DNA from: Vicinamibacteria bacterium
Lineage (GTDB): Bacteria > Acidobacteriota > Vicinamibacteria > Vicinamibacterales > CAVVIG01
Reading direction: 5' to 3'
Assembly (NCBI GenBank): GCA_041485905.1
Contig: JBGPKK010000001.1
Span: 38,141-102,140 of the forward strand
DNA: 64,000 nt
The position numbers were made by a program, and so were the translations under genes. Position 1 is the first letter of the stretch; each line of letters begins with the position of its first letter. Below are positions 3,831-55,170 of this stretch, in pieces. The notes below the pieces were generated by a model. The model did no database searches, was not told the origin of the DNA, and worked only from the letters and a program-made list of their open reading frames with translations.

Positions 3831-4689
3831 GGGCGGAGTACGCGCCGGCGAGCTTGCGCGTCAAGGCGCCGGGCGTACCTCGATGACGCGTGGAACGCGA
3901 CGTCGGGCCGATCGGATGCGCGTCCACGCGAACGAGCGGCGCGAGCCCGCGCAGCGAGCTGGTAAGGAACGCCTCCCGTGCGTCCACGAGATCGGCCAGC
4001 CCGAATGCGCGCTGCTCGTTCGGGACACCGAGCGAGGTCGCGAGCTCGAGCACTGCCTCCCGCGTAAGACCCGGGAGTGCGCCGCACGAGACTGGCGGCG
4101 TCAGAAGGATGCTCCCGGTCCAGATGAACAAATTGCTCGACGTGGCCTCTGAGCAATGCGATTCGGTGTCGAGAAAAATCGCCTCGTCCGCGCCGGCCCG
4201 GTGCGCCTCGAGCCATGCGGCGACCGCGTCGGTGTAGCCGAGCGTCTTGAGCCCGGCCGTCATCGCCCGCTCATTGCGGAGTCCCGACGCGACGTGCGCC
4301 GTGAGGCCGACGTCGTAGATCGCCGCCGGGAACACGGGCAGTGGGCTTACAGCAACGATCACTGTCGGACGCGCGTCGAGAGACGGCGCGACGCCACCGG
4401 CGCCGAGGCCGCGGGTCACCGTGAGGCGGACAGCCGCGTCAACGCGACCCGCCGAACCCGTCGCATCAAGCACCCACTCGCGCAGCTCGGGAGATTCCGG
4501 GATCTGGAGTGCGGCGAGCGCGGAGACGAGCCGCGCGAGATGGCGGTCGAGCCGAAATACCGCGCCGCTCTCCGCGCGCATCGTCTCGAAGACGCCGTCG
4601 GCGAGCGTGAGGCCGCGGTCGTTCGCCGAGACATGCAGGCCAGAGGACGGCTGCCGCTCGCCGTTGACCCACACCGCCGGCACCGTCAC
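3805..4689 (-). CDS. pabC: aminodeoxychorismate lyase / class IV aminotransferase
   Basis: ORF track. DRGLTLADGVFETMRA, SSNLFIW and the LPGLTR motif. GTG start overlaps the pabA stop (GTGA). Confidence 0.8.
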   Translation of the reverse strand: MTVPAVWVNGERQPSSGLHVSANDRGLTLADGVFETMRAESGAVFRLDRHLARLVSALAALQIPESPELREWVLDATGSAGRVDAAVRLTVTRGLGAGGVAPSLDARPTVIVAVSPLPVFPAAIYDVGLTAHVASGLRNERAMTAGLKTLGYTDAVAAWLEAHRAGADEAIFLDTESHCSEATSSNLFIWTGSILLTPPVSCGALPGLTREAVLELATSLGVPNEQRAFGLADLVDAREAFLTSSLRGLAPLVRVDAHPIGPTSRSTRHRGTPGALTRKLAGAYSALVAQECGK

Positions 4690-5375: not shown

Positions 5376-6931
5376 GCGGGCACCGCGAGGACGTCGATCA
5401 TACCGCGCGCCTTGTCGAGTGTCTCGCGGTACTCCTGTTCGGGGTCCGAGTCGGCCACGATCCCGCCGCCGGCGCTGAAGTACACCCGGCCGCCGCGTGC
5501 GACGGCGGTGCGGATGGCGATGCTGCTGTCGAGCGGCCCGGTGACGCTCCAGTATCCGATGGCGCCGCAGTACACGCCCCGCGCCGATGGCTCCAGCTCG
5601 GCGATGATCTCCATCGCGCGCACTTTCGGGGCGCCGGTAATGGAGCCACCGGGAAACGCCGCACGCAGCAGATCGGCCCCGTCCGCGCCGGGCGAAAGCT
5701 CCCCGACCACGGTCGAGACCAGGTGGTGGACGGTGGCGTAGCGCTCGAGCGCGAACAGCTCGGGCACGCGGACGGTGCCGGGAGCGCACACGCGGGATAA
5801 GTCGTTTCGCATCAGGTCGACGATCATCAGGTTCTCGGCGCGATCCTTCGCGCTCTCGGTAAGCACCACGCCGAGCGCCGCGTCATGCTCGGGTCCCACG
5901 CCGCGTGGACGGGTCCCCTTGACCGGGCGCGTCTCGACGTGCCCGCCGACGTCCACTTGCAGGAAGCGCTCGGGCGACGCGCTGAGCACGACCGCGTCCG
6001 GAAAATCCAGATAGGCGGCGAAGGGAGCAGGGTTCCGCGTGCGCAGCCGCCGATAGAGCGCCCACGGCGGCTCCTCGAGCGGCGCGTCAAAGCGCTGAGA
6101 CAGGTTGGCCTGAAAAATGTCGCCGGCGAAGATGTATTCACGCACGCGGGCGACCGCATCGAGGTAACCCCTGTGCGTGAACGACGATCGAATCGCAAGG
6201 TGCGGGTCCCACCATCCACCCTCGACCGGATAGGCTGGCGCCGGGGCGTCCCGTGCAGTCGTCAGTCGACGGTCGTCAGTCGACAGTCGATCGACGACCG
6301 ACGACTGTCGACTGTCGACTGTCGACTGTAACCGCGCCCGCACGTCGGCCGCGCGTCGAGCGGCGCGGCGAGCGCGGGCCGCTGGTGATGTTTCCGGTAG
6401 GCCGGTGGAAATCAACCATGCACGGGATGCGTCGTGATCCCATGCCAGCACCCAGTCGTACACGCCGAAGACGAGGTCGGGCAGCACGAGATCATCGTGG
6501 CGTGGCGCCGGAAGGCGCTCGAGCGCGCGGCCCCAGTCATATGCCACGTAGCCGGCGGCGCCTCCCTGAAAGGGCGGCAGCCCAGGCACCGGATCAGCAG
6601 CGTGCGGGGCGAGCCATCCACGAACGGCGGCGAGCGCGTCACCTGCGACGAAGGGCGTGGTGATGGCCGGCAGCCCGCTGCGCATCTCGAGGCAATCGGT
6701 CCGCGTCCCTTTGCTGCGCACGACGGCCACCGGATCGGCGACGAGAAAGGAATAGCGGCCAAGACGCGTTCCCGGCGCTGCGCTGTCGAGAAACAGGCGA
6801 TACGGAAGTCCCTCGAGCCGTTCGCAGCAGCTCGAGGGATCGGGCGGTGGAACCAGTTCCTCGACGAGCGGAACGACGTTCAAGATACCCTCAGCGGTAA
6901 GTGTGAGGTCTGAAGTCTCAAGAGTGCGCAC
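5372..6931 (-). CDS. pabB: aminodeoxychorismate synthase component I, with a repeat-encoded in-frame insert
   Basis: ORF track. YIFAGDIFQANLSQRF, PFAAYLDF, GTRPRG and SITGAPKVRAMEIIAELEPSARGVYCGAIGY are chorismate-utilising-enzyme motifs. Residues about 202-225 (QSTVDSRQSSVVDRLSTDDRRLTT) are encoded by the heptamer array at 6256-6328. Confidence 0.9.
   Translation of the reverse strand: MRTLETSDLTLTAEGILNVVPLVEELVPPPDPSSCCERLEGLPYRLFLDSAAPGTRLGRYSFLVADPVAVVRSKGTRTDCLEMRSGLPAITTPFVAGDALAAVRGWLAPHAADPVPGLPPFQGGAAGYVAYDWGRALERLPAPRHDDLVLPDLVFGVYDWVLAWDHDASRAWLISTGLPETSPAARARRAARRAADVRARLQSTVDSRQSSVVDRLSTDDRRLTTARDAPAPAYPVEGGWWDPHLAIRSSFTHRGYLDAVARVREYIFAGDIFQANLSQRFDAPLEEPPWALYRRLRTRNPAPFAAYLDFPDAVVLSASPERFLQVDVGGHVETRPVKGTRPRGVGPEHDAALGVVLTESAKDRAENLMIVDLMRNDLSRVCAPGTVRVPELFALERYATVHHLVSTVVGELSPGADGADLLRAAFPGGSITGAPKVRAMEIIAELEPSARGVYCGAIGYWSVTGPLDSSIAIRTAVARGGRVYFSAGGGIVADSDPEQEYRETLDKARGMIDVLAVPA
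6256..6328. repeat. Palindromic heptamer array (CAGTCGA-type arm followed by TCGACTG-type arm) inside pabB
   Basis: cagtcgt cagtcga cggtcgt cagtcga cagtcga | tcgacga ccgacga ctgtcga ctgtcga ctgtcga ctg. cagtcgacagtcga and tcgactgtcgactg are perfect reverse complements. Confidence 0.9.
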
Positions 6932-6965
6932 AGTGCAGACTTCAAACTTGAGACGTGAGACACGC

Positions 6966-10296: not shown

Positions 10297-10427
10297 TGGA
10301 CACCCACGCTGTGGCGCAGCGCTTGAGCGCTGCGAAAACGTGGCCGACTCGGAGGGCTGAAGCCCTGCGCTACAGCAGTACTGATTCAGCGCGGAGGTTC
10401 AAACCTGATAAAGAATAGGGCTCTCCC

Positions 10428-35916: not shown

Positions 35917-36000
35917 TGGGGAAATTGGGAATTAAGAATTAGGAATTCAGAATTCAGAATTCGAGCCACGAATTCCTAATTTCGAATTCTGAATTCATAA
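35917..36000. repeat. A+T-rich palindromic heptamer array filling the whole fwdB-fwdA intergenic space
   Basis: gaattaa gaattag gaattca gaattca gaattcg agcc acgaatt cctaatt tcgaatt ctgaatt cataatt. gaattcagaattcga and tcgaattctgaattc are perfect inverted repeats. Contains several GAATTC cores. Confidence 0.9.
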
Positions 36001-37344
36001 TTACGCGATTGCCGCGCGGACGTGCGTCTCGGGCGACCAGGCAGGCTTCGCGGCCACCGCCTCGCGGATGCGCCGGACGACCTCTTCGTCGGTCGGATAC
36101 GGCGACTTGAGCGCCGGCCGAAGCGGCAGGGGTATTTCGTCCATGCGATACGCAGTCCCCGGCGCGCTGATACCTGTGACCGCCGTGGTGATGTGCACGC
36201 GGGACAGGCGGCTCGTGTGAGTCACCTTGGGATCCAGCACGATCGTGGGAATGCGAGCCAGGTGATCGATGCCCGGCTGCGGCATCGTCGCTCCCGGATC
36301 CGCGCCGAGGATGAGCGCGGCGTCGTTGTCGCCGCGGACGATCAGGTCCACGGTCGAGAACTCCCCCGGATTGAAACGGGGGTAGCCCCGACTCAAGCTC
36401 ACACCGAACGGGTAGCCGGTCGACCAGCGCAGGACCATGTCCGATCCGGTGACGTTGCCGTGCCCTCGCATCGGCATGCACACGAACTTGGTGAACGCGT
36501 TCAGCTCCGCGGCCAGCGAGAGCACGCCCGCCGAGTTCATGTGCTTTCCACGGGTCATCGAGAGCCCCATGCCGAAGAAGATCACGCCGAATTTTGCGCG
36601 CTTCATTCGGTTGACGAGGTCCTGGAGTTGATCGACCGAGAGTCCGGTTTCCGCCACGCTCTCGGCATTGACCCTCTGGTTCTTGACAAGCGCGCGCAAG
36701 GTGGTGAGAACCTCGAAGTCCTTGCCCGGCCGAATCTGCAGGAAGAGGTCCGCAGCCTTCACGCTGGGCGTTTCGCGGATGTCCACCAGGACCATGAAGC
36801 GTCCCTTGCGCCCTTCCGGCACGAACCTGCCCTTCTGGGTCAGCGTGTATTTGGTGAAGTGCCGCGGGTGGCATTCCGCCGGGTTGCCGCCCCAGTAGAT
36901 GATGAAGTCGGCCCGATTCTTCACTTCGCCGAGCGTGCATGTAATCTTGCCACCCAACTGGGCGGCTATCTCAGTGGGGCCGTGTCAAAGCGAGGTGTGG
37001 CTGTCGACCACACCCCCGATCAACTCAGCCAGTGCCACGGCTTCCCGCTGGGCCTCGCACGTGATGTTGCTGAGTCCGTACACCAGTGGCATGTTGGCGG
37101 CATACAGGTAGTCGGCCGCGGCTGCGACGGCCGCGTCGAGAGTGGCCGGCTTCCCGTCGATCAGCGCGTCTGGAAACAGACGCTCCGCCGTGTGGTGTTT
37201 GAACCACGACTCGCCGAGACTGCAGGCGTTCTTGGCCTTGACGATGCGATCGCCTTCGGTGTGCAACTCGATGTCGTCACAGACGCATCCGCAGAACGTG
37301 CACGTGGCGTTGGGCACGACGTTGCTCGCAACGTTGAGGGTCAT
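36001..37344 (-). CDS. fwdB: formylmethanofuran dehydrogenase subunit B with an in-frame TGA (probable selenocysteine) at 36985-36987
   Basis: ORFs 36985..37482 (from MTLNV, Met47) and 36001..36957 are in the same frame, separated only by TGA plus 9 sense codons: ...GGVVDSHTSL-TGA-HGPTEIAAQLGGKITC.... The N-terminus has CTFCGCVCDD...C (Fe-S-like). The TGA is codon 120 and is followed by His. Confidence 0.75.
36953..36978 (-). promoter_or_regulatory. Candidate bacterial SECIS-like hairpin downstream of the fwdB UGA
   Basis: mRNA reads UGA CACGGC CCCACUG AGAUAGCCGCC CAGUUGGG: a 7-bp stem with one bulged U and an 11-nt loop, starting 7 nt after UGA. Folded by eye only. Confidence 0.3.
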
Positions 37345-46218: not shown

Positions 46219-48590
46219 GCTCCCGAATTTTTGGCTCAGGCATCCGGCGGCGGGAAGATCCGCGGCTGATTACCGGGACCGCGTTGTACACCGACGATCT
46301 GACGCTGCCGGCGATGGTCCACGCGGCCATGCTGCGCAGCCCGCACGCCTACGCGCGCATCACGAGGATTGACGTCAGCCGCGCGAAAGCGGCGCCGGGC
46401 GTGCTGGCCGCCTACACGGCCGCGGACATCGACGCGCTGAAGCCGGTGCCGTGCGCGTGGCTGCTGCCGAACGCGAACCTCAAGATCGCCGGCTACCCGT
46501 GCATGGCCAGGGACACCGTCCGCTACGTCGGCGACATCGTGGCGGTCGTCGTCGCCGAGACCGCGTATCAGGCGTACGACGCGCTCGATCTCCTCGAGGT
46601 GGACTACGACGCGTTGCCCGCAGTCACCGATCCAAAGGCAGCGGCCCAGCCCGGCGCGCCGCAGCTGCACGCCGACATACCAAACAACGAGGCGTTTCAC
46701 TGGGTGGTGGCTGGCGGCGATATCGACGCCGCCTTCAAGAACGCTGAAGTCATCGTCAAGGAGCGCATCGTTCAGCAACGGCTCATTCCCAACGCGATGG
46801 AGCCACGGGCCGCGCTCGCGCAGTGGAGCGGCGCGTCGGGAGAGCTGACGCTCTGGAACACGACCCAGAACCCCCACATCCTCCGCTACCTCACCTCGGT
46901 CGTCACCGGCGTGCCGGAAGACAAGCTGCGTGTGGTCGCCCCTGAAGTCGGCGGCGGGTTTGGCAGCAAGATCGCGGCGTATCCGGCGGACTTCATCACC
47001 TGTTTCTGCGCGATGACCTTGAATCGGCCGGTCAAGTGGAACGAAACGCGCAGCGAGAACTATCAGGCGACAACGCACGGCCGCGATCACATCCAGGAGG
47101 TCGAGCTCGCCGCGAAGAAGGACGGGACGATCCTCGGACTGCGCGCCGAGATCTGGGCGGGCATGGGCGCGTATCTGTCGACGGCGGCGCCCGGCATCCC
47201 GACGATTCTGCACGGCCTGATGCTGTCGGGCGTGTACAACCTGCCCGCCGTCAAGGAACACGTCCACGGCGTATATACCAACGCCACGCCGGTCGAGGCG
47301 TATCGCGGCGCCGGACGACCCGAAGCGACGTTCATGATCGAACGCATGATGGACAAGCTGGCGAGCACGATCGGGATGGATCCGGTTGACCTGCGGTTGA
47401 AGAACATGATCCCGCGCTTCGAGAACGGGCACACGGTCATCACCGGGCTCACCTACGACAGCGGCGACTACCCGGCGGGATTGAAGAAGATCCTGGATCA
47501 CGTGAAGTACAAGGAGCTGCGCAAGGAGCAGGCGGACGCGCGCAAGAAGGGACGCTACATCGGCATCGGCGTGGCGTCCTACGTCGAGATCTGCGGACTC
47601 GGGCCGTCACAGGTCGCCGGCGCGATCGGCTTCCAGGGAGGTCTGTGGGAAAGCGCCATCGTGCGCGTCCATCCCACAGGGAAGGTTCACGTCTTCATCG
47701 GCGCGTCGCCGCACGGTCAAGGCGAAGAGACGACGTTCGCCCAGCTCGTCGCCAGCGAGATCGGCGTCGATACCAACGACGTCAAGGTGTTTCACGGCGA
47801 CACCGACGTCACCCCGATGGGATGGGGCACCTACGGCAGCCGGACGACCGCGGTCGGCGGTGCGGCCCTGATCCTCGCGACGCGCAAGGTCAAGGAGAAG
47901 GCCAAGGTCATTGCCGCGCACCTGCTCGAAGCCTCGGTCGAGGACATGGACTACGCCGACGGCAGGTTCTTCGTGAAGGGATCGCCCGACAAGGCGAAGA
48001 CGATTCAGGAGGTCGCGCTGATGGCGCACCTGTCGTGGAACATGCCGAAGGACGTCGAGTCGGGACTCGAGGCGTCGATGTTCTACGACCCGCCCAACTT
48101 TACGTATCCGTTCGGATCGCACGTCGCGGTGGTCGAAGTCGATCCGGAGACGGGACAGATCGATCTCAAGCGGTACGTCGCGCTCGACGACTGCGGCCCG
48201 CAGATCAATCCGGTCATCGTCGAAGGCCAGGTGCACGGCGGCGTCGTGCAGGGTCTGGGTCAGGCGCTCTGGGAAGAAGCGGTGTACGACGAGAACGGGC
48301 AGCTGGTCACGGGGTCGATGCTCGACTACGCCCTGCCCCGCGCCGACACGCTCTGCGACATCGAGGTGATTTCGACGGTCACGCCGTCGCCGCATCATCC
48401 GCTTGGACTCAAAGGCGTTGGCGAAGCCGGCACGATCGCGTCGACCGTGACGATGTACAGCGCCGTGATGGACGGGCTCGCGCCCCTGGGCGTCCAGCCG
48501 CTTCGGATGCCGATGACGGCCGAACGCGTGTGGCGGGCCATTCAAGAGGGCAAAGCGCAAAGGGCAGAGGGCAAAGCGCAGAAGGCATAG
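46215..48590 (+). CDS. coxL: Molybdopterin large subunit, form-II CoxL-like (AYRGAGR active-site loop)
   Basis: Start at MSSRIFGSGIRRRED (Met61 of ORF 46035..48590), ATGA overlap with coxS. EVGGGFGSK; VEAYRGAGRPEA rather than the AYRCSFR of form I. The last about 14 residues are encoded by the heptamer array. Confidence 0.85.
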   Translation: MSSRIFGSGIRRREDPRLITGTALYTDDLTLPAMVHAAMLRSPHAYARITRIDVSRAKAAPGVLAAYTAADIDALKPVPCAWLLPNANLKIAGYPCMARDTVRYVGDIVAVVVAETAYQAYDALDLLEVDYDALPAVTDPKAAAQPGAPQLHADIPNNEAFHWVVAGGDIDAAFKNAEVIVKERIVQQRLIPNAMEPRAALAQWSGASGELTLWNTTQNPHILRYLTSVVTGVPEDKLRVVAPEVGGGFGSKIAAYPADFITCFCAMTLNRPVKWNETRSENYQATTHGRDHIQEVELAAKKDGTILGLRAEIWAGMGAYLSTAAPGIPTILHGLMLSGVYNLPAVKEHVHGVYTNATPVEAYRGAGRPEATFMIERMMDKLASTIGMDPVDLRLKNMIPRFENGHTVITGLTYDSGDYPAGLKKILDHVKYKELRKEQADARKKGRYIGIGVASYVEICGLGPSQVAGAIGFQGGLWESAIVRVHPTGKVHVFIGASPHGQGEETTFAQLVASEIGVDTNDVKVFHGDTDVTPMGWGTYGSRTTAVGGAALILATRKVKEKAKVIAAHLLEASVEDMDYADGRFFVKGSPDKAKTIQEVALMAHLSWNMPKDVESGLEASMFYDPPNFTYPFGSHVAVVEVDPETGQIDLKRYVALDDCGPQINPVIVEGQVHGGVVQGLGQALWEEAVYDENGQLVTGSMLDYALPRADTLCDIEVISTVTPSPHHPLGLKGVGEAGTIASTVTMYSAVMDGLAPLGVQPLRMPMTAERVWRAIQEGKAQRAEGKAQKA

Positions 48591-48650
48591 GGCAAAGCGC
48601 AGAGGGCATAGGGCAAAGGGGTTTTTGCCCTTTGCCTTTTGCCTTTTGCA
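48548..48650. repeat. Heptamer array pair: about 10 x GGGCAAA-type units, then 3-4 x TTGCCCT-type units (hairpin)
   Basis: gggcaaa gcgcaaa gggcaga gggcaaa gcgcaga aggcata gggcaaa gcgcaga gggcata gggcaaa ggggttt ttgccct ttgcctt ttgcctt ttgcact. Confidence 0.9.
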
Positions 48651-48666
48651 CTACGAGGTTCTTCTT

Positions 48667-49533
48667 ATGTATGCATCAGAGTTCGACTACTACCGCGCCG
48701 GCACCGTGGCGGAAGCCGGCGAGCTTCTGCGGAAATATCCTGGCGCCAAACTCCTGGCCGGCGGCCACAGCCTGATTCCGCTGCTGAAACTGCGTCTCGC
48801 CGCGCCACCCGCGCTCATCGACATCGGCCGCATCGTGGAGCTCAAAGGCGTGACGGTCACAGGGGGAACCGTCCGCATCGGCGCGCTCACCACGCATGCC
48901 GATCTGGCGGCCTCCAACGCGCTAGGCGAGAGTTGCCCTGCGCTCGCCGAGGCGGCGCAACAGGTGGGCGATCCGGCGGTGCGAAACCGGGGGACCATCG
49001 GCGGCAACGTCGCTCACGCCGATCCGGCGTCGGACCTGCCGACGGTGCTCACCGCGCTCGGCGCACGGTTCACCATCGCCGGGCCGCGCGGAACGAGGAC
49101 CGTCGACGCCGGCGGTTTTTTCACCGGCATGATGACCACCGCGCTCGACGATCAGGATCTGCTCACGGCGATCGAAATTCCCGCGAAGCAGAAGGGCCAG
49201 GGCATGGCGTACGTGAAATTCTCGCATCCGGCGTCGCGCTACGCCGTCATCGGCGTCGCCGCGAGCGTCACGGTGACCGGCGGTACGTGTACTGCCGCAG
49301 GCGTGGCGATCGGCGGGCTCGTCCCCACGGCCACGCGCGCCCGGTCGGTTGAGAAGGCGCTCGTCGGTCAGCCGCTGTCGGCCGACGCCATTGCGAAGGC
49401 GGCCCATCAGATCGCGCAGGACTTGGGAGCCGACATCCTCGGCGATCTCTACGCATCGGCCGATTACCGCAAGGCGGTCGCGCCGGTGTGGGTGAAGCGA
49501 GCGCTCACCGCGGCGGCGGATCGCGCACGATAA
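48667..49533 (+). CDS. coxM: FAD-binding medium subunit
   Basis: Start at MYASEFDYYRAG (Met15 of ORF 48625..49533). LLAGGHSLIP and RNRGTIGGN. Confidence 0.9.
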   Translation: MYASEFDYYRAGTVAEAGELLRKYPGAKLLAGGHSLIPLLKLRLAAPPALIDIGRIVELKGVTVTGGTVRIGALTTHADLAASNALGESCPALAEAAQQVGDPAVRNRGTIGGNVAHADPASDLPTVLTALGARFTIAGPRGTRTVDAGGFFTGMMTTALDDQDLLTAIEIPAKQKGQGMAYVKFSHPASRYAVIGVAASVTVTGGTCTAAGVAIGGLVPTATRARSVEKALVGQPLSADAIAKAAHQIAQDLGADILGDLYASADYRKAVAPVWVKRALTAAADRAR

Positions 49534-49536
49534 AAG

Positions 49537-50436
49537 GTGGTTCCCGCATCCATCGACGAGCTGCAGGCGCTTCTCGAGCGACAGCTCTACATCGCCGATC
49601 GCGGCCTCGCGACCTCCATCTATCTCGCGCTGAAGCTGCAGCGTCCGCTGCTGCTCGAGGGCGAGGCCGGTGTCGGCAAGACCGAAGTCGCCAAAGTGCT
49701 GGCTGCTGCCTTCGACACCGACCTGATCCGCCTCCAATGTTACGAAGGCCTCGACATCAGCCATGCGGTGTACGAATGGAACTACGCGCGGCAGTTGCTG
49801 GAGATCCGGTTGATGGAAGCATCCGGCGCAGTGGATCGCCAGAAGGCTGCGAGCGAGCTGTTCGGCGAAGAATTTCTCATCAGGCGGCCGCTGCTTCAGG
49901 CGCTGTCGAACCGCGGGACGCGGCCGGTTCTCCTGATCGACGAGCTGGATCGCGCTGACGAAGAGTTCGAGGGCTATTTGCTCGAGCTGCTCAGCGACTT
50001 TCAAATCACGATTCCCGAGATTGGCACGATCCGCGCCGGCACTCCGCCGATTGTCATCATCACGTCGAACCGGACCCGCGAGCTGCACGACGCGCTGAAG
50101 CGGCGCTGCCTGTATTTCTGGATCGATTACCCGGACGCTCAGAAAGAGCTTCGCATCGTCACGACGAAACTGCCGGGCGCGCCCGCGCGGCTGGCTGAGC
50201 AGGTGACCGCATTCGTCCAGGAGCTCCGCGCGATGGATCTTTACAAAGCCGCCGGCGTCTCCGAGACACTGGACTGGGTCGCCGCGCTCGTCGCGCTCGA
50301 TCGCCAGGAGCTCGACGCCGACGCGATCGAGCAGACGCTCGGCATCCTGCTCAAGAACCAGGAAGACATTCAGGCGATGCGCGGCGGGCGGATCTCGGAG
50401 CTGCTCAATCGCACTCGATCTGCTTCGCTCGGATAA
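49537..50436 (+). CDS. coxD: MoxR-family AAA+ ATPase (CoxD-like)
   Basis: ORF track. LLLEGEAGVGKT Walker A, VLLIDELDRA Walker B. Confidence 0.85.
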   Translation: MVPASIDELQALLERQLYIADRGLATSIYLALKLQRPLLLEGEAGVGKTEVAKVLAAAFDTDLIRLQCYEGLDISHAVYEWNYARQLLEIRLMEASGAVDRQKAASELFGEEFLIRRPLLQALSNRGTRPVLLIDELDRADEEFEGYLLELLSDFQITIPEIGTIRAGTPPIVIITSNRTRELHDALKRRCLYFWIDYPDAQKELRIVTTKLPGAPARLAEQVTAFVQELRAMDLYKAAGVSETLDWVAALVALDRQELDADAIEQTLGILLKNQEDIQAMRGGRISELLNRTRSASLG

Positions 50437-50626
50437 AGATCATCGGGTCTTTGCACACCAGCGTTTCGTTGTCCTTCGTCACCTCCCATCCTTTCAGGAT
50501 TCCGTTGCGAAGGACAAGGGCCGGCTCGTCAGCCAACAAAAATACACTTCCCATTCCGAGCGCGACACCTACCACGATTCCGACACACAGAACCCGAATT
50601 GACGGCATGCGTCGGAACAACTGCAA
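50405..50626 (-). CDS. Hypothetical small single-TM protein
   Basis: ORF track. Hydrophobic VLCVGIVVGVALGMGSVFLL. A+T-richer than its surroundings. Overlaps the coxD 3' end by 32 nt, so uncertain. Confidence 0.4.
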   Translation of the reverse strand: MQLFRRMPSIRVLCVGIVVGVALGMGSVFLLADEPALVLRNGILKGWEVTKDNETLVCKDPMIFIRAKQIECD

Positions 50627-50732
50627 ATGACGCGCCGGTTGAGATTGTTGGGGTTTTGAAAGCCAGCAGCCTGGAAGGGGGCAATTCTTGTCCCGGTGCC
50701 GATGGCGTCTAATGGCAGATTCTGCGTCTCTG

Positions 50733-51461
50733 TCATGGGGCCGGCGGCTTACAGATCGCGCATGGTCCGTGTTTCTTGATCGCTTCGGCTAACGCCATCG
50801 GAGTCGCGTGGCTGCGGGCCAGGAGTGGGCAATCAGCACGATGATATTTCGTTCCAGTTCTTGTGACATAAACGGTCACCTGTTGTGAAGTGGATTGTGA
50901 GCGATTGTTGGACCGGGCGGCCGGCGGAACCGTTTTCTTGTCTGGGGCCCAGAGTCCAAGGTTCCTTTCGCGAGCCTCACGTTCGAGCTTCCTGAACTGC
51001 TCCAGGTATTTGAACGGATACCTGGTGTAAGCGAACCCGTAACCCTGTCGAATGATCTCGGCGTTTACGAACGTGCCGTCCAATAGATAGATGTACGCCA
51101 ACGTTCGGTTGTACTTGTCTCTTCGATTCCAGTCGTATTCAACTCGCACGCGCTTGCCGTCGACAAGCCGGTGCATGAAGGCGCTCGCTTCCCGACCGAA
51201 TCGCTGGATCGGACGTCGCGGATCAACCGTTTCAGGTGTGTCGATGCCAATCAGGCGGACCTTGCCAATCCGTTCAAGCACAATCGTGTCGCCATCAACG
51301 ACTCGAGTCACACGGTACGATTCCGAGGTGGTCTGGGAAGACGCGACCAGCGTCGAGAAGATCAGTGCAAAGACCGTGTACAGCGGGACCAGCACTTTGG
51401 CCGCAGGCCGGCGCGGAGCCGAGCCCTCAGAGGTCAGCGCGAGAGTCAACGGTTTGTCCAT
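50733..51461 (-). CDS. Secreted/membrane-anchored thermonuclease (SNase)-family nuclease with a C-terminal Cys/His-rich tail
   Basis: Start at MDKPLTL (Met12 of ORF 50733..51494). TM/signal VLVPLYTVFALIFSTLVA; VVDGDTIVL...VRLIGIDTPE...GREA...DKYNRTLAYIYL...NAEIIRQGYG...E..AR....GLW is the SNase core. The tail is YHRADCP...HGPCAICKP. Confidence 0.8.
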   Translation of the reverse strand: MDKPLTLALTSEGSAPRRPAAKVLVPLYTVFALIFSTLVASSQTTSESYRVTRVVDGDTIVLERIGKVRLIGIDTPETVDPRRPIQRFGREASAFMHRLVDGKRVRVEYDWNRRDKYNRTLAYIYLLDGTFVNAEIIRQGYGFAYTRYPFKYLEQFRKLEREARERNLGLWAPDKKTVPPAARSNNRSQSTSQQVTVYVTRTGTKYHRADCPLLARSHATPMALAEAIKKHGPCAICKPPAP

Positions 51462-51583
51462 CGTCAGAATGAGCGCAGGCGAGCCGTGGCGCAATGGAAA
51501 AATTCTTCAGGCGCCCCCGCTTTAAATCGATCATTGCTTGAGTCCGGGACTCTGTACGGACCGTCTCTCTAGGCAAGCCATGC

Positions 51584-51618
51584 ATTCCTGATTCATAATT
51601 CCTAATTGTAAATTGCCC
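51584..51618. repeat. A+T-rich heptamer half-array (attcctg attcata attccta attgtaa attgccc) running into the coxE start codon
   Basis: Read directly. Same flavour as the arm next to the fwdA start. Confidence 0.85.
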
Positions 51619-52773
51619 TTTCTCTTCCACAACATCGTCCACTTCGGCCGGCTCCTGCACGCGCTTGGCCTGGACGTGCATGCCGGACGCATGCTCGATG
51701 TGGCCGGGGCGCTGGAGCACATCGACATCGGACGCCGCTCGGACTTTTGCGTCGCGCTGCAATCTCTTCTCATTCACCGCCCGCAGGATCTGCCGATCTT
51801 TGACGAGGCGTTCCGCGTGTTCTGGAAGCCGCCGCCAGGTGAATGGGCATCGACCGATCTGCGGGCCATGGGTGAACAGCGCCGCTCCGGAGCGCCCCAA
51901 GTCGATGTACCAGCGGCACAACCCGATTCACTGGACGATCCCTCGCTTCCCCTGCTCGCTGAGACCGTCCAGCGCATCGCGCCGAGAGGTTACAGCTCGC
52001 AGGAGGTATCGCGCGTCAAGGACTTCGAGCAGTTCACGGAGGCCGAGCTCGAAGCCGCGAAGGCGATGATCGCAGAGCTGACGTGGGACCTTGGGACGCG
52101 ACAGACTCGCCGCTGGAAGTCCGGCGACGGCAGGGTACTGGATTTCAGGAAGGTCATGCGCCGCAACCTTCGCTACGGCGGCGAACCGCTCGCGCTGCCG
52201 ACACGCGAGCGAGCGTCACGGCGCCGGCCGCTCGTGCTGCTCTGCGACGTCAGCGGATCGATGGAGCGGTACGCGCGCATGCTGCTGCATTTCATGCATA
52301 GTCTGGCCGCCGGCCTCGAACACGTCGAGGCGTTCGTGTTCGCGACGCGGTTGACCCGGATCACACGCGATCTCTCCGCGCGCGGCGGCCGCGAATCGCT
52401 GCCCACGATCCCGCGGCGCGTGCCCGACTGGGCCGGGGGCACGCGCATCGGAGACGCGGTGCGGACGTTCAACGTGCAGTGGGCGCGCCGCGTCATGGGA
52501 CATGGACCAGTCGTGCTGTTGATCTCTGACGGGTGGGATCGCGGGGAACCCGAGGTGCTCGCCCGCGAGATGAGCCGCCTCCAGCGAAGCTGTCATCGTC
52601 TCATCTGGCTCAACCCGCTGCTCGGATCGGCGGACTATCAGCCGCTGACGCGCGGGATGCAGGCGGCGCTACCGTTCGTCGACGATTTCCTGCCGGTGCA
52701 CAATCTGGCCAGCCTGGAAGCGCTTGCGCGGCACCTCAACAAACTGCCGGCGCGCCGCGCGGTCAGGGCATAG
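51613..52773 (+). CDS. coxE: VWA-domain protein (CoxE-like)
   Basis: ORF track (TTG start). LVLLCDVSGSM MIDAS motif and VVLLISDGWD. Confidence 0.85.
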   Translation: MPFLFHNIVHFGRLLHALGLDVHAGRMLDVAGALEHIDIGRRSDFCVALQSLLIHRPQDLPIFDEAFRVFWKPPPGEWASTDLRAMGEQRRSGAPQVDVPAAQPDSLDDPSLPLLAETVQRIAPRGYSSQEVSRVKDFEQFTEAELEAAKAMIAELTWDLGTRQTRRWKSGDGRVLDFRKVMRRNLRYGGEPLALPTRERASRRRPLVLLCDVSGSMERYARMLLHFMHSLAAGLEHVEAFVFATRLTRITRDLSARGGRESLPTIPRRVPDWAGGTRIGDAVRTFNVQWARRVMGHGPVVLLISDGWDRGEPEVLAREMSRLQRSCHRLIWLNPLLGSADYQPLTRGMQAALPFVDDFLPVHNLASLEALARHLNKLPARRAVRA

Positions 52774-52835
52774 GGCATAGGGCAAAGGGCAAAGGGCAGA
52801 GGGCAGAGGGCAAAGGGCAGAGGGCAGAGGGCAAA
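52766..52835. repeat. Heptamer array, 10 x GGGCAxA (left arm of the four-helix-bundle cassette)
   Basis: gggcata gggcata gggcaaa gggcaaa gggcaga gggcaga gggcaaa gggcaga gggcaga gggcaaa. Contains the coxE stop codon. Confidence 0.95.
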
Positions 52836-52839
52836 AGAC

Positions 52840-53217
52840 TCACACTGATGGGGATCCGCGGTACGGTGAGGCACGAGCCGTTCTGATGGCGCTGATGACC
52901 ATCGCTCGAAGTTGGTTCGCTTCGCCGAGTTCCCATTCGGCTTCATCCTTCGTCACGACCGCAATCTTCAGAGCGACGCGAAGCCACCAGATGGTCTCGC
53001 GCGCCTCCTTTCGGGAAATACTCAGCTTTGCAATGAAATCCGGCTTCGACTGGCCTTCTTGCGCTTCTTCTGCGTTGGAGCCGATCGAGGTGCCGCAACG
53101 CATTAGCTGTGACGCCACGTGTCGAGCCGCTGGCCCGCGCGACCAGATCTTCTCCGACAGCTTCAAGATGCAGCAGGCAAATTCGAACGCTCGCTCGCAG
53201 ATGATGGAGTGGGTCAT
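52840..53217 (-). CDS. four-helix-bundle protein (23S rRNA intervening-sequence protein family)
   Basis: Start at MTHSIICERAFEF (Met9 of ORF 52840..53241). SIGSNAEEAQEGQSKPDFIAKLSISRKEARETIWWL matches that family's hallmark as I remember it. Confidence 0.75.
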   Translation of the reverse strand: MTHSIICERAFEFACCILKLSEKIWSRGPAARHVASQLMRCGTSIGSNAEEAQEGQSKPDFIAKLSISRKEARETIWWLRVALKIAVVTKDEAEWELGEANQLRAMVISAIRTARASPYRGSPSV

Positions 53218-53346
53218 GACGCGCTGGAGTTCAAGGTTCACGCCACCGGAAATGTCACGAAAGGCTGGTAAAAACAGATGCCGGCATTGGCGGTTTGAAA
53301 TTCATACATCCCCCCGCGCACCGCGGAGATCTCTTTTTGTGCGATC

Positions 53347-53381
53347 TGCCCTTTGCCCTTTGCCCTTAGCCCTTAGCCCTT
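53347..53381. repeat. Heptamer array, 5 x TGCCCTT/AGCCCTT (right arm, inverted relative to 52766-52835)
   Basis: tgccctt tgccctt tgccctt agccctt agccctt. Contains the coxG stop codon. Confidence 0.95.
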
Positions 53382-53803
53382 TCCTGAAGGCACCCGAAGA
53401 ACCGGTCCATCATCATCTTCGAGACCGTGCCGAGCAGACGCTGACCAACCCGCGCCATGAGACCGCCGACCTGCCCCTGACCTTTTACGTTCACGATCGT
53501 CGTGTCGTTCTGTTCCACGAGCTCGACCGTCGCCTCGCCCTTGACAAAGCCGGCCTTGCCGGTGCCTTCGACAACCAGTCGATAGGAGTGCGGCGGCCGT
53601 TTGTCGAGAATCGCGACCGTCCCCGTGTACTGACCGCTGACCGCCGCGACGGCCAAGGTCAACGACGCTCGATATTGATCCTCGCCAATCGGCTCCAACC
53701 GATCGCAACCCGGCAGACATTCCGCAACGACGATGGGATCGATGAGCAGATTCCAGACCGCGGTGGGAGGGGCGGCGAAGGTGTAAGAAGCGGCAAGATC
53801 CAT
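53366..53803 (-). CDS. coxG: SRPBCC-fold CoxG-like protein
   Basis: ORF track. VWNLLIDPIVVAECLPGCDRLEPIGEDQYRA...VSGQYTGTV...GGLMARVGQRLL fits CoxG. Confidence 0.8.
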   Translation of the reverse strand: MDLAASYTFAAPPTAVWNLLIDPIVVAECLPGCDRLEPIGEDQYRASLTLAVAAVSGQYTGTVAILDKRPPHSYRLVVEGTGKAGFVKGEATVELVEQNDTTIVNVKGQGQVGGLMARVGQRLLGTVSKMMMDRFFGCLQERAKG

Positions 53804-53812
53804 GACGGGGAT

Positions 53813-54610
53813 CTACGGCTTCGTCACGGTGTACTCTGCCGGAATCTTGAATACCTCGTCCGCAATCGGCGCCAGGGAAACTTCGGTGACCTTGCTGGTC
53901 AGCTTCATCGGCAGCTTGAACGCGTCAACGAGCGGCGAACCCCCTTCGAGGGAGACCTCGAAGTCGGTGAGGCACGTGATGCCTTCAGCGCGGGCGAATA
54001 GCTGGTTCAGATCGACGCTGCCCGAAGACTGCGCCGTGCCGGGAAGGTTCGCCGCGATGGCGCGCTTCTGAAACGCGACATACTCCGCAGCACCAGGCGC
54101 GTTGTTCGACACCCACACGACGCCGTTGGACGTCAGCCGGGCGTCCTTGAACGTTTCGGCTGCTTCCTTGGACATCTGCCGCTGTGCCATGTCGACCGAC
54201 ATCGATACTTTGAACTCGTCGCATCGCTGGCCGAAGAATGTCTGCGACCGTCCCGTTGGCTCGAGAGTGAGGTCGACGTTCGGCATCGTTTCCCGCGCCT
54301 CAGCGGTCGGCGCATCGGACACCTGCGCGATTTTCTGCGGGCCGATCAGATGGATCACCCGACCCGTCGTCAGGTCGACAATGGTCGAAATCGTCGCGCC
54401 CTGGGACTCGGAATCCGTACGCGACTTCGTACCCTTGATGCGCGTGATCGCACGCGCTGTGCTGATGTTCGGCGCGCCTTCCATCGTGAGGGTCGTTGTC
54501 ATGGTAATCGTGACGTCGGCGCGAAGCACGGTCGAGCACATCGCGATCAGGGCAAGCGCTATCCATGACGACTGTCGACTGACGACGGTCGACTGTCGAC
54601 TGCTGATCAT
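53813..54610 (-). CDS. secreted protein or lipoprotein, unknown function
   Basis: ORF track. N-terminus MISSRQSTVVSRQSSWIALALIAMCSTVLRA. The charged n-region is encoded by the heptamer half-array. Confidence 0.65.
   Translation of the reverse strand: MISSRQSTVVSRQSSWIALALIAMCSTVLRADVTITMTTTLTMEGAPNISTARAITRIKGTKSRTDSESQGATISTIVDLTTGRVIHLIGPQKIAQVSDAPTAEARETMPNVDLTLEPTGRSQTFFGQRCDEFKVSMSVDMAQRQMSKEAAETFKDARLTSNGVVWVSNNAPGAAEYVAFQKRAIAANLPGTAQSSGSVDLNQLFARAEGITCLTDFEVSLEGGSPLVDAFKLPMKLTSKVTEVSLAPIADEVFKIPAEYTVTKP
54567..54602. repeat. Heptamer half-array (cgactgt cgactga cgacggt cgactgt cgactgc), same flavour as the pabB insert
   Basis: Read directly. Lies at the junction of the CHRD gene stop and the downstream gene start. 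Confidence 0.9.
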
Positions 54611-55047: not shown

Positions 55048-55081
55048 CGTGCCTCCGCTTGGATTGTACAGGGGTCTGGCG

Positions 55082-55170
55082 GGGCAGGTGGGTCAGGTGC
55101 GCCGGGTAGGTAACCCACCCGACCTACACGACCTACCCCGACTCACCCGACCTACCTGCCCTACCCGACC
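55082..55170. repeat. G+C-rich inverted repeat array (GTAGGTC/GACCTAC flavour) just downstream of the amidase stop
   Basis: gggcaggtgggtcaggtgcgccgggtaggtaa / cccacccgacctacacgacctaccccgactcacccgacctacctgccc. The outer 8 nt gggcaggt and acctgccc are perfect complements. Confidence 0.8.

Follow-up and report, generated by a model that had tools for sequence, protein, structure and literature searches.

What is a small four-helix-bundle gene doing between two convergent cox genes, and why does it stand between heptamer arrays of opposite orientation? The questions are raised by a 64,000-nt stretch of a Vicinamibacteria contig (JBGPKK010000001.1, positions 38,141 to 102,140; hereafter the window), in which a gene of the 23S rRNA intervening sequence (IVS) protein family, also called S23p or Avd-like, lies between coxE and coxG. 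We propose, with moderate confidence, that gene and repeats together form an IVS-type hairpin cassette outside rRNA, in which a PF05635 Avd-like gene is combined with its cognate inverted heptamer arrays and the arrays are the recombining ends. A sequence-only reading of this DNA had suggested a discrete, hairpin-bounded, IVS-like cassette, and this part of the proposal is supported by the association of gene and arrays across the family and by their joint absence from the same site in close relatives.

Intervening sequences of 23S rRNA that carry an open reading frame (ORF) of this family have been known since the early 1990s, and we know of no function or origin assigned to that ORF. An excess of heptanucleotide repeats has been reported repeatedly for many bacterial genomes, to our knowledge without an explanation.

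The cassette and its gene

The sequence-only reading had counted ten GGGCAxA units and five inverted units around a segment of 511 bp, and had taken the four-helix-bundle gene with about 130 nt of upstream region to be all that this segment contains. Both statements are correct (Table 1). Tandem Repeats Finder returned a period-7 array of 9.9 copies with 93% matches at 52765-52833 and an inverted period-7 array of 5.1 copies, also with 93% matches, at 53347-53382. In the window, which comes from a genome with a G+C content of 65.8%, a three-unit pattern (GGGCANAGGGCANAGGGCA, up to two mismatches) has 22 matches, compared with 0.03 in shuffled sequence, and all 22 fall at the cassette arrays or at a second site, 48548-48644. 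An inverted-repeat scan aligned the two arms with 83-86% complementarity over 41-46 nt, at a spacing of 500-534 nt. We name the arms in the sense of the gene, i.e., on the minus strand. The stop codons of the convergent coxE and coxG genes both lie inside the arrays: the coxE stop TAG (52771-52773) falls within the outermost units of the 3' arm, and the first two units of the 5' arm are the last coxG codons and stop (..RAKG*). A 21-nt super-period of three units (92-93% matches) runs through the 3' arm and through a further array at 48545-48618, which suggests growth in three-unit steps; 21 bp correspond to two turns of B-DNA and preserve the reading frame.

The encoded protein, which an alternative GTG start would extend to 53241, matches PF05635 (E 1.7e-18, 67.3 bits against a cut-off of 33.8) and TIGR02436, 'four helix bundle protein' (E 2.2e-22, 79.3 bits against a cut-off of 24), and its gene is the only PF05635 gene within the window. 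An AlphaFold2 model built from 27 homologues has a pLDDT of 93 and places helices at residues 5-27, 29-52, 58-84 and 90-116. The best Foldseek matches were BT_0352 (2RLD), XCC0516 (2GSC) and Avd of a Bordetella phage retroelement (4DWL, 8UBE). Template modelling (TM) scores against 2RLD were 0.77-0.92 across chains and normalisations, with root-mean-square deviations of 1.3-2.3, and a profile match to the same structure gave E 4e-25. Against structures of bAvd and the ribonucleoprotein of diversity-generating retroelements (DGRs), TM scores were 0.68-0.83, depending on the chain and on query or target normalisation. Exact look-up of the ATG and GTG forms of the protein found no record, PADLOC gave no match, and no relatives were found in viral contigs. 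In twelve comparisons, including orthologues with a synonymous divergence (dS) above 1, the ratio of nonsynonymous to synonymous rates (dN/dS) was 0.03-0.14; by this measure the gene is under strong purifying selection, kept and not decaying.

Association of gene and arrays across the family

A profile of close homologues, run against one genome per species, yielded 80 loci, of which 25 belong to Vicinamibacterales or other Acidobacteriota (close) and 55 to Bacteroidota, Verrucomicrobiota, Ignavibacteriota, Lentisphaerota, the candidate phyla radiation, Proteobacteria and others (distant). An array was scored as a 28-nt stretch with at least 75% self-identity at lag 7, no more than 300 nt from the gene, in 75 loci (25 close, 50 distant) of about 15 phyla, with segments 1.2-2.2 kb away as controls. 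Such an array was present in 70 of the 75 loci (25/25 close, 45/50 distant) and on both sides of the gene in 20 close and 37 distant ones, whereas it occurred in 9 of 276 control segments (1/98 close, 8/178 distant). The expectation that other members of the family would be flanked by inverted arrays is thus borne out. Lags of 5, 6, 8 and 9 gave 0-2 matches near the gene and no enrichment. Array density was 2.11 per kb near the gene against 0.104 per kb at more than 600 nt from it, and 0.038 per kb in 262 kb of unrelated coxG loci; between several of the far-flank heptamer pairs lie additional members of the family, more divergent and missed by the profile scan.

The units vary between loci (AGGGCAG, ATGGCAG, AGGGGTA, AAGGCAA, GAATTAA, AATTACG, AGTTAAG and more). 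In every locus compared, the two arms are reverse complements of each other, and arm alignments within a locus score far above cross-locus controls. The 5' arm is purine-rich in 60 of 63 loci and the 3' arm pyrimidine-rich in 59 of 62; since an inverted pair reads alike from both strands, the polarity belongs to the hairpin as such. Cross-phylum pairs of loci that share a unit (at most one mismatch) have a mean protein identity of 54.7%, compared with 42.8% for pairs with differing units (p 2e-29, the pairs not being independent), and single same-unit pairs reach 81-86%. To judge from these identities, unit sequence follows protein subfamily across phyla, and gene and repeat are cognate. We rejected as a general rule that arrays are made purely from the local target, because unit type follows the protein subfamily across phyla. 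G-quadruplex formation was likewise rejected as a general explanation: the GGGCAxA arrays do fit the motif, but A/T-rich units such as GAATTAA and AATTACG, in Bacteroidota and others, cannot form one.

The arrangement also occurs in annotated genomes of cultured organisms, on plasmids. Family members with heptamer arms are present on Nostoc punctiforme pNPUN01 (AGTCGGA/GGTCGGA), between cas2 and cas1 on Anabaena cylindrica pANACY.01, between drmD and pglX on Planktothrix agardhii p1, and on a Treponema saccharophilum plasmid. In the supplement of a survey of GGGAATC repeats in Xanthomonas, repeat #15 abuts the start of XCC0516 (Rehm, 2015, PMC4692102). XCC0516 is the protein of structure 2GSC and itself a family member, so that those data, like the ones published on the Coxiella 23S IVS (see below), contain the gene-repeat link unstated.

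Two observations concern the arms of single loci. In L004 (260-385) and L019 (2700-2862), the upstream arms are triplicated as higher-order repeats, each copy consisting of about four heptamers and a fixed spacer of 8-20 nt (e.g., GACACAGCT or GAGTGAGCCTGTCA), a structure suggesting that arm ends were duplicated serially or inserted one within another. In L011, an ORF that by eye resembles an IS630-type DDE transposase (3873-4409) lies between the gene and the downstream arm (4439-4581), which it displaces by 1.1 kb.

Presence, absence and orientation in relatives

A close relative, L083 (GCA_023265175.1; CoxG 91% identical), shares the gene order amidase, CHRD, a 275-aa ORF, coxG, coxE, coxD, coxM and coxL. 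In L083 and in L084 the stops of coxG and coxE are 4 nt apart, with neither gene nor arrays between them. Because gene and arrays are missing together, the arrays cannot be taken for an older feature that existed independently of the gene, a possibility that would have counted against the earlier reading. The only ancestral part consists of two heptamer-like units that are the last codons of coxG: in the empty site this gene ends GAA AGG GCC AAG GGC TAA, which already reads AAGGGCC AAGGGCT. The coxL gene of the empty-site genome ends GCA AAA GGC TAG, and from these two gene ends it follows that both array sites of the window start at a native '..AKG-stop' resembling a unit. The native units at the coxG end suggest that entry may have been guided by homology. 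On the coxE side, about 51 nt of ancestral spacer and the tail of CoxE have been replaced relative to L083; CoxE ends ..ARRAVRA* in the window, whereas the L083 tail is different and 19 residues longer. These comparisons indicate that gain or loss affects gene and arms jointly, as one DNA unit.

The insertion has a narrow distribution at coxG. None of 80 further, coxG-guided metagenome loci carries the cassette, from which we conclude that only a narrow cluster of strains has the insertion here. An exact-pattern metagenome scan for the coxG 3' end gave no matches, and look-ups of CoxG in P0141, P0133 and P0125 led to non-syntenic contexts. Elsewhere, the four-helix-bundle gene is solitary at about 14 different sites, among which no neighbouring gene is conserved. 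Cassettes are found at the 3' ends of genes and elsewhere between genes.

The cassette occurs in both orientations. Six close loci share a site between an NtrC-type regulator gene and aroB, with flanks of up to 98% amino acid identity and cassette proteins 96-97% identical. In L015 and L016 the cassette is oriented opposite to that in L009, L014, L018 and L019, its upstream and downstream flanks having traded places and direction. An assembly artefact is an unlikely source of this difference, as we judge from contigs of hundreds of kb to Mb. A second case is the P0001 contig (cassette protein 94% and CoxG 96% identical), in which the gene is convergent with coxG rather than co-directional as in the window. 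Opposite orientation is thus seen at two independent sites, at the coxG site from gene calls only.

The arms change in unit number and in unit type. The near-identical strain L081 has four 5'-arm units where the window has five, their sole difference, and the contig of L082 ends inside the array. At the orthologous site, L009 carries AGGGCAG in both arms and L014 and L018 carry ATGGCAG in both, while L019 has AGGGCAG as the outermost unit on both sides and ATGGCAG inside. Such symmetric turnover would follow from repeated exchange between the inverted arms together with slippage.

The convergent spacer after coxG gathers different hairpin repeats in different lineages. Directly after this gene, L101 and L104 have gene-less heptamer hairpins, and L083 (4345-4400), L087, L110 and L113 have REP-like palindromes (GGCCAAAGCCGGACACTA, GTCCGCCTTCAGGCGGAC).

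Gene-less hairpins and other features of the window

The cassette's unit also forms a gene-less hairpin, between coxL and coxM, with 10.6 degenerate units (48547-48620, 76% matches) followed by 3.9 inverted units (48623-48649) and only GGGGTTTTTG between the two arms. By consensus scan the hairpin is terminator-like. It adds 10 residues, encoded at 48548-48590, to CoxL, which ends ..IQEGKAQRAEGKAQKA as against ..IQQAKG in L083, where the coxL-coxM spacer measures 26 nt and contains no hairpin. The two arms do abut directly, as had been described, but the description as an unoccupied site needs qualification, since the hairpin is absent from L083 and is thus, like the cassette, a derived insertion. 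It could be either a landing pad or a form of the cassette that lacks the gene. Gene-less heptamer hairpins occur at further loci as well.

At least five further intergenic array hairpins lie in the window, with energies down to -67 kcal/mol and units unrelated to GGGCAxA. None of these five encloses a PF05635 gene, and their unit families recur gene-less in the Vicinamibacterales loci L010, L101, L104 and L105.

Table 1. Coordinates of the cassette, its neighbours and the array hairpins in the window
Feature	Position	Strand	Description
Four-helix-bundle gene (23S rRNA IVS protein / S23p / Avd-like)	52840-53217	-	125 aa from ATG
Leader	53218-53346	-	129 nt, 5' arm to ATG; poorly conserved except for one motif
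TGGC-N7-TTGA motif	53231-53245	-	ends 13 nt before ATG
Small GC hairpin with T-rich tail	53314-53326	+ (coxE sense)	inside leader; terminator-like by consensus scan only, weak
Array, 3' arm in gene sense	52766-52835	-	ten T(C/T/A)TGCCC heptamers; GGGCAxA on + strand
Array, 5' arm in gene sense	53347-53381	-	five AAGGGC(T/A) heptamers
Segment inside arrays	52836-53346		511 bp; single minus-strand ORF
coxE, left flank	51613-52773	+	VWA_CoxE match
coxG, right flank	53366-53803	-	COXG match; same strand as four-helix-bundle gene
Gene-less hairpin	48548-48650		GGGCAAA/GCGCAGA units; between coxL and coxM; free energy -54.8 kcal/mol
Array hairpin	6256-6329		CAGTCGA/TCGACTG units
Array hairpin	6899-6961		AGTCTGA-like units
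Array hairpin	35923-36002		GGAATTx units
Array hairpin	54566-54602		CGACTGT units
Array hairpin	55072-55170		9-mers GGGTCAGGT/ACCTACCCG

Other features of the region also differ between relatives. A 265-aa ORF on the minus strand between CHRD and coxG (53813-54610) matches nothing in Pfam or NCBIfam. L081-L083 have it too, the L083 homologue with a faint DUF4412 match as its sole match; by gene calls, the P0001 contig, where the CHRD-coxG gap is 45 nt, lacks it. A staphylococcal-nuclease-like gene (PF00565; 50733-51494, minus strand) breaks the cox cluster between coxD and coxE and is absent there in L083, in which the gap is 100 nt. At its start (1-352), the window contains a 159-bp tandem repeat of about two copies with 82-90% matches.

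The leader and the folding of the arms

Within the leader, the TGGC-N7-TTGA motif stands out: in 21 aligned close-clade leaders its GG, T and G are invariant and its C and A at least 90% conserved, and it ends 12-14 nt before the start codon. Extended to TGGC-N7-TTGA-N13-RTG, the pattern has 2 matches in the window, compared with 0.02 expected; the other lies at 10312-10342 (plus strand). The sigma-54 consensus is TGGCAC-N5-TTGC, with GG and GC 12 nt apart. The spacing of the motif is exactly that of the sigma-54 -24/-12 elements, but its -12 element is GA rather than GC. We consider the motif promoter-like; if it is a promoter, the mRNA would be leaderless or nearly so. As the motif adjoins the ATG, transcripts of the gene itself may not include the 5' arm. 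A sigma-70 reading of TTGAA was rejected, as the -10 element would land within the conserved N-terminus.

In folding calculations, which the earlier reading had also called for, the two arms pair on both strands, in minimum free energy and centroid structures alike (z -3.2 and -3.6). Selection on this pairing at the RNA level was sought in a wobble bias of the arm mismatches, with a negative result: neither strand has an excess of G-U (50 vs 47, 147 others).

Proposed mechanism

In the mechanism that we propose, the arrays would be the module's recombining ends. Exchange between the inverted arms, or excision followed by re-entry, would flip the cassette, and flipping together with slippage would homogenise the two arms. 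Entry at a new site would be guided by short homology between unit and target, and gene-less hairpins of the cassette's unit would be landing pads or cargo-less derivatives. By analogy with Avd, which binds RNA in DGRs, the four-helix-bundle protein most likely binds the repeat nucleic acid, and a tie between unit type and protein subfamily is expected of a cognate binding pair. Upon read-through from coxG or coxE, the arms would pair into a long stem, which RNase III may cut as it does in the 23S IVS, so that the neighbouring genes would be insulated.

Mobility, which the sequence-only reading had advanced, is supported as movement or rearrangement at the DNA level by presence and absence, by opposite orientation and by unit-number polymorphism. 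Taken at the level of sequence, the module is a discrete insertion, with arrays that are recombined or otherwise exchanged, and persists for long at its site under selection.

Several points weigh against the proposal. Pfam and TIGR02436 searches found no nuclease, recombinase or transposase domain in the 125-aa protein, and comparison with the empty site revealed no target-site duplication, the spacer of about 51 nt being replaced instead. Orthologous sites retain the cassette at dS above 1, so movement must be rare and the module is perhaps better called domesticated than mobile. Opposite orientation could arise by ordinary homologous recombination between any inverted repeats and would then require no dedicated mechanism. 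Cross-phylum similarity may stem in part from mis-binned metagenome-assembled genomes. Binding of the repeat by the protein is argued from the analogy with Avd. Both results of the preceding section point the same way: the position of the promoter-like motif suggests that the gene's own transcript would be without the 5' arm, and the arm mismatches have no wobble bias.

Alternative explanations

The strongest rival would confine the role of the arrays to RNA. The arms would form a stem in the transcript, as an RNase III site, terminator or stabiliser, by which the mRNA of the four-helix-bundle gene is released or protected and coxE and coxG are insulated; polymorphism at the DNA level would be a side effect. 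The pairing of the arms on both strands agrees with this, as do the RNase III cut at the first heptamer of the Coxiella IVS stem, the position of cassettes at gene 3' ends and within operons (cas2/cas1; drmD/pglX), and the terminator-like gene-less hairpin at 48548-48650. However, G-U pairs are not favoured among the mismatches, the two variable positions of the unit often mismatch between arms, and a promoter next to the ATG would leave the 5' arm out of the gene's mRNA. Nor would a stem explain the constant period of 7 or the match between unit and protein subfamily, and we regard an explanation at the RNA level alone as unlikely.

Less probable still is that the heptamers are operator arrays, bound by the encoded protein or a host factor, which control the sigma-54-like promoter, for example by DNA looping, with the inverted symmetry reflecting binding-site geometry and not mobility. 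Close-clade loci have their upstream array 125-165 nt before the start, the usual distance of enhancers from -24/-12 promoters; unit type follows the protein subfamily, and the 21-nt super-period equals two DNA turns. In distant phyla, however, the array is merely 10-70 nt from the start. Moreover, where the arms abut in gene-less hairpins there is nothing to regulate, joint gain and loss and opposite orientations are left unexplained, and the -12 element departs from the canonical GC.

Two further ideas are very improbable. Slippage-prone heptamers might pile up at gene 3' ends and enclose a small gene between two of them by chance, as the other array hairpins of the window and the gene-less ones after coxG in L101 and L104 could be taken to show, but the 20- to 55-fold enrichment at this gene family, specific to period 7 and spread over about 15 phyla, the strict reverse complementarity and fixed polarity of the arms, and the joint absence in L083 strongly disfavour coincidence. 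The gene might also be an orphan avd, left after a DGR lost its reverse transcriptase and its template and variable repeats, which the fold would suit, but its neighbours are coxE and coxG, with neither a reverse transcriptase nor a long template/variable repeat pair, it is solitary at about 14 sites, and strong purifying selection speaks against a leftover gene; an inverted-repeat scan of 52700-53450, in which long direct repeats were not scanned, returned the heptamer arms and short chance pairs.

Comparison with known systems

We therefore return to the proposed hairpin cassette with recombining ends and compare it with the systems that it resembles. It shares with the 23S IVSs of Leptospira and Coxiella burnetii that carry an S23p ORF the protein family and the placement of the ORF in the loop of a long stem, i.e., a PF05635 ORF between terminal inverted repeats capable of pairing. 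In Coxiella, two to three GACAGAT heptamers, in strain-variable number, precede the S23p ORF, and RNase III cuts at the first of them (PMC4990558); the cassette likewise has boundary heptamers whose number varies between strains, five units here against four in L081. Sporadic presence and absence, pointing to horizontal acquisition, is a further likeness. The systems differ in location, the IVS lying in helix 9, 25 or 45 of 23S rRNA and the cassette in the spacer between two protein-coding genes: Rfam found no rRNA at 48000-54000, where sub-threshold miRNA noise on the hairpin was the only signal, and none in 20 distant loci. The cassette also has long heptamer arrays on both sides, and its gene is under strong purifying selection, whereas the Coxiella IVS ORF is reportedly decaying. 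Judged by its structure and its behaviour at the DNA level, both supported by the comparisons above, the cassette is an IVS-type element located outside rRNA.

The arrays belong to the same class as the heptamer repeats known as cyanobacterial STRR, Xanthomonas GGGAATC and TAACTGA, which are likewise intergenic, of period 7 and often G-rich, and genomes of these kinds also carry PF05635 genes. In Xanthomonas, 70-75 convergent inverted GGGAATC pairs have been counted (Rehm, 2015, PMC4692102). That study and one of TAACTGA (MacGregor, 2015, PMC4679880) treat the arrays as G-quadruplex or translational elements, with no link to a gene family. Our literature search, which left subscription-only literature outside its scope, found no report that ties heptamer arrays to the PF05635 family other than the single-species observation in Coxiella, and the general association of gene and repeat appears to be unreported.

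REP/REPIN sequences and their RAYT genes offer a second parallel, with a gene flanked by inverted short repeats that are also dispersed as gene-less hairpins, a repeat type cognate to the gene subfamily, mostly vertical inheritance and purifying selection. RAYT, however, is an HUH tyrosine transposase of known chemistry, whereas the cassette protein is a 125-aa helical bundle in which no catalytic motif was recognised and the PF05635 and TIGR02436 matches are the only ones, without HUH (Y1) identity; REP repeats are single palindromes, the cassette repeats tandem heptamer arrays. With Avd, a nucleic-acid-binding oligomer, the cassette protein has fold and superfamily in common, but its gene stands alone in a repeat hairpin with no reverse transcriptase nearby. 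Like an inverton, the cassette is a segment between inverted repeats, and close relatives have it in both orientations; unlike an inverton, it has no site-specific invertase seen to be associated with it, no neighbouring gene being conserved among about 14 sites, and its arms are variable tandem arrays rather than fixed recombinase sites. Classification as an insertion sequence or a miniature inverted-repeat transposable element in the usual sense was rejected, since a transposase domain and, relative to the empty site, a target-site duplication are lacking.

Implications

The cassettes have practical consequences. They break short-read assemblies, as at the contig end inside the L082 array, and cassettes or arrays lengthen or shorten the C-termini of neighbouring proteins (CoxL, CoxE). 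A large clustering study listed '23S rRNA IVP' as CRISPR-associated (PMC10910872), and heptamer-armed copies such as those at cas2/cas1 and drmD/pglX may explain the reported association.

It is tempting to speculate that PF05635 proteins and heptamer arrays form a widespread two-part system comparable to RAYT/REPIN, in which each subfamily recognises its own unit. We hold this wider view only tentatively and think it somewhat doubtful. Each protein subfamily would then seed, spread or maintain hairpin arrays of its own unit throughout the genome, including in rRNA helices, where they would be seen as IVSs. If true, such a system would explain the heptamer excess of bacteria (cyanobacterial STRR, Xanthomonas GGGAATC), as well as the origin of ORF-bearing rRNA IVSs and the role of stand-alone Avd-like proteins. 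In the family as surveyed here, across many phyla and mostly outside rRNA, the IVS gene is nearly always carried inside a hairpin of inverted heptamer arrays, and the IVS ORF and the excess of heptamer repeats are thereby tied together.

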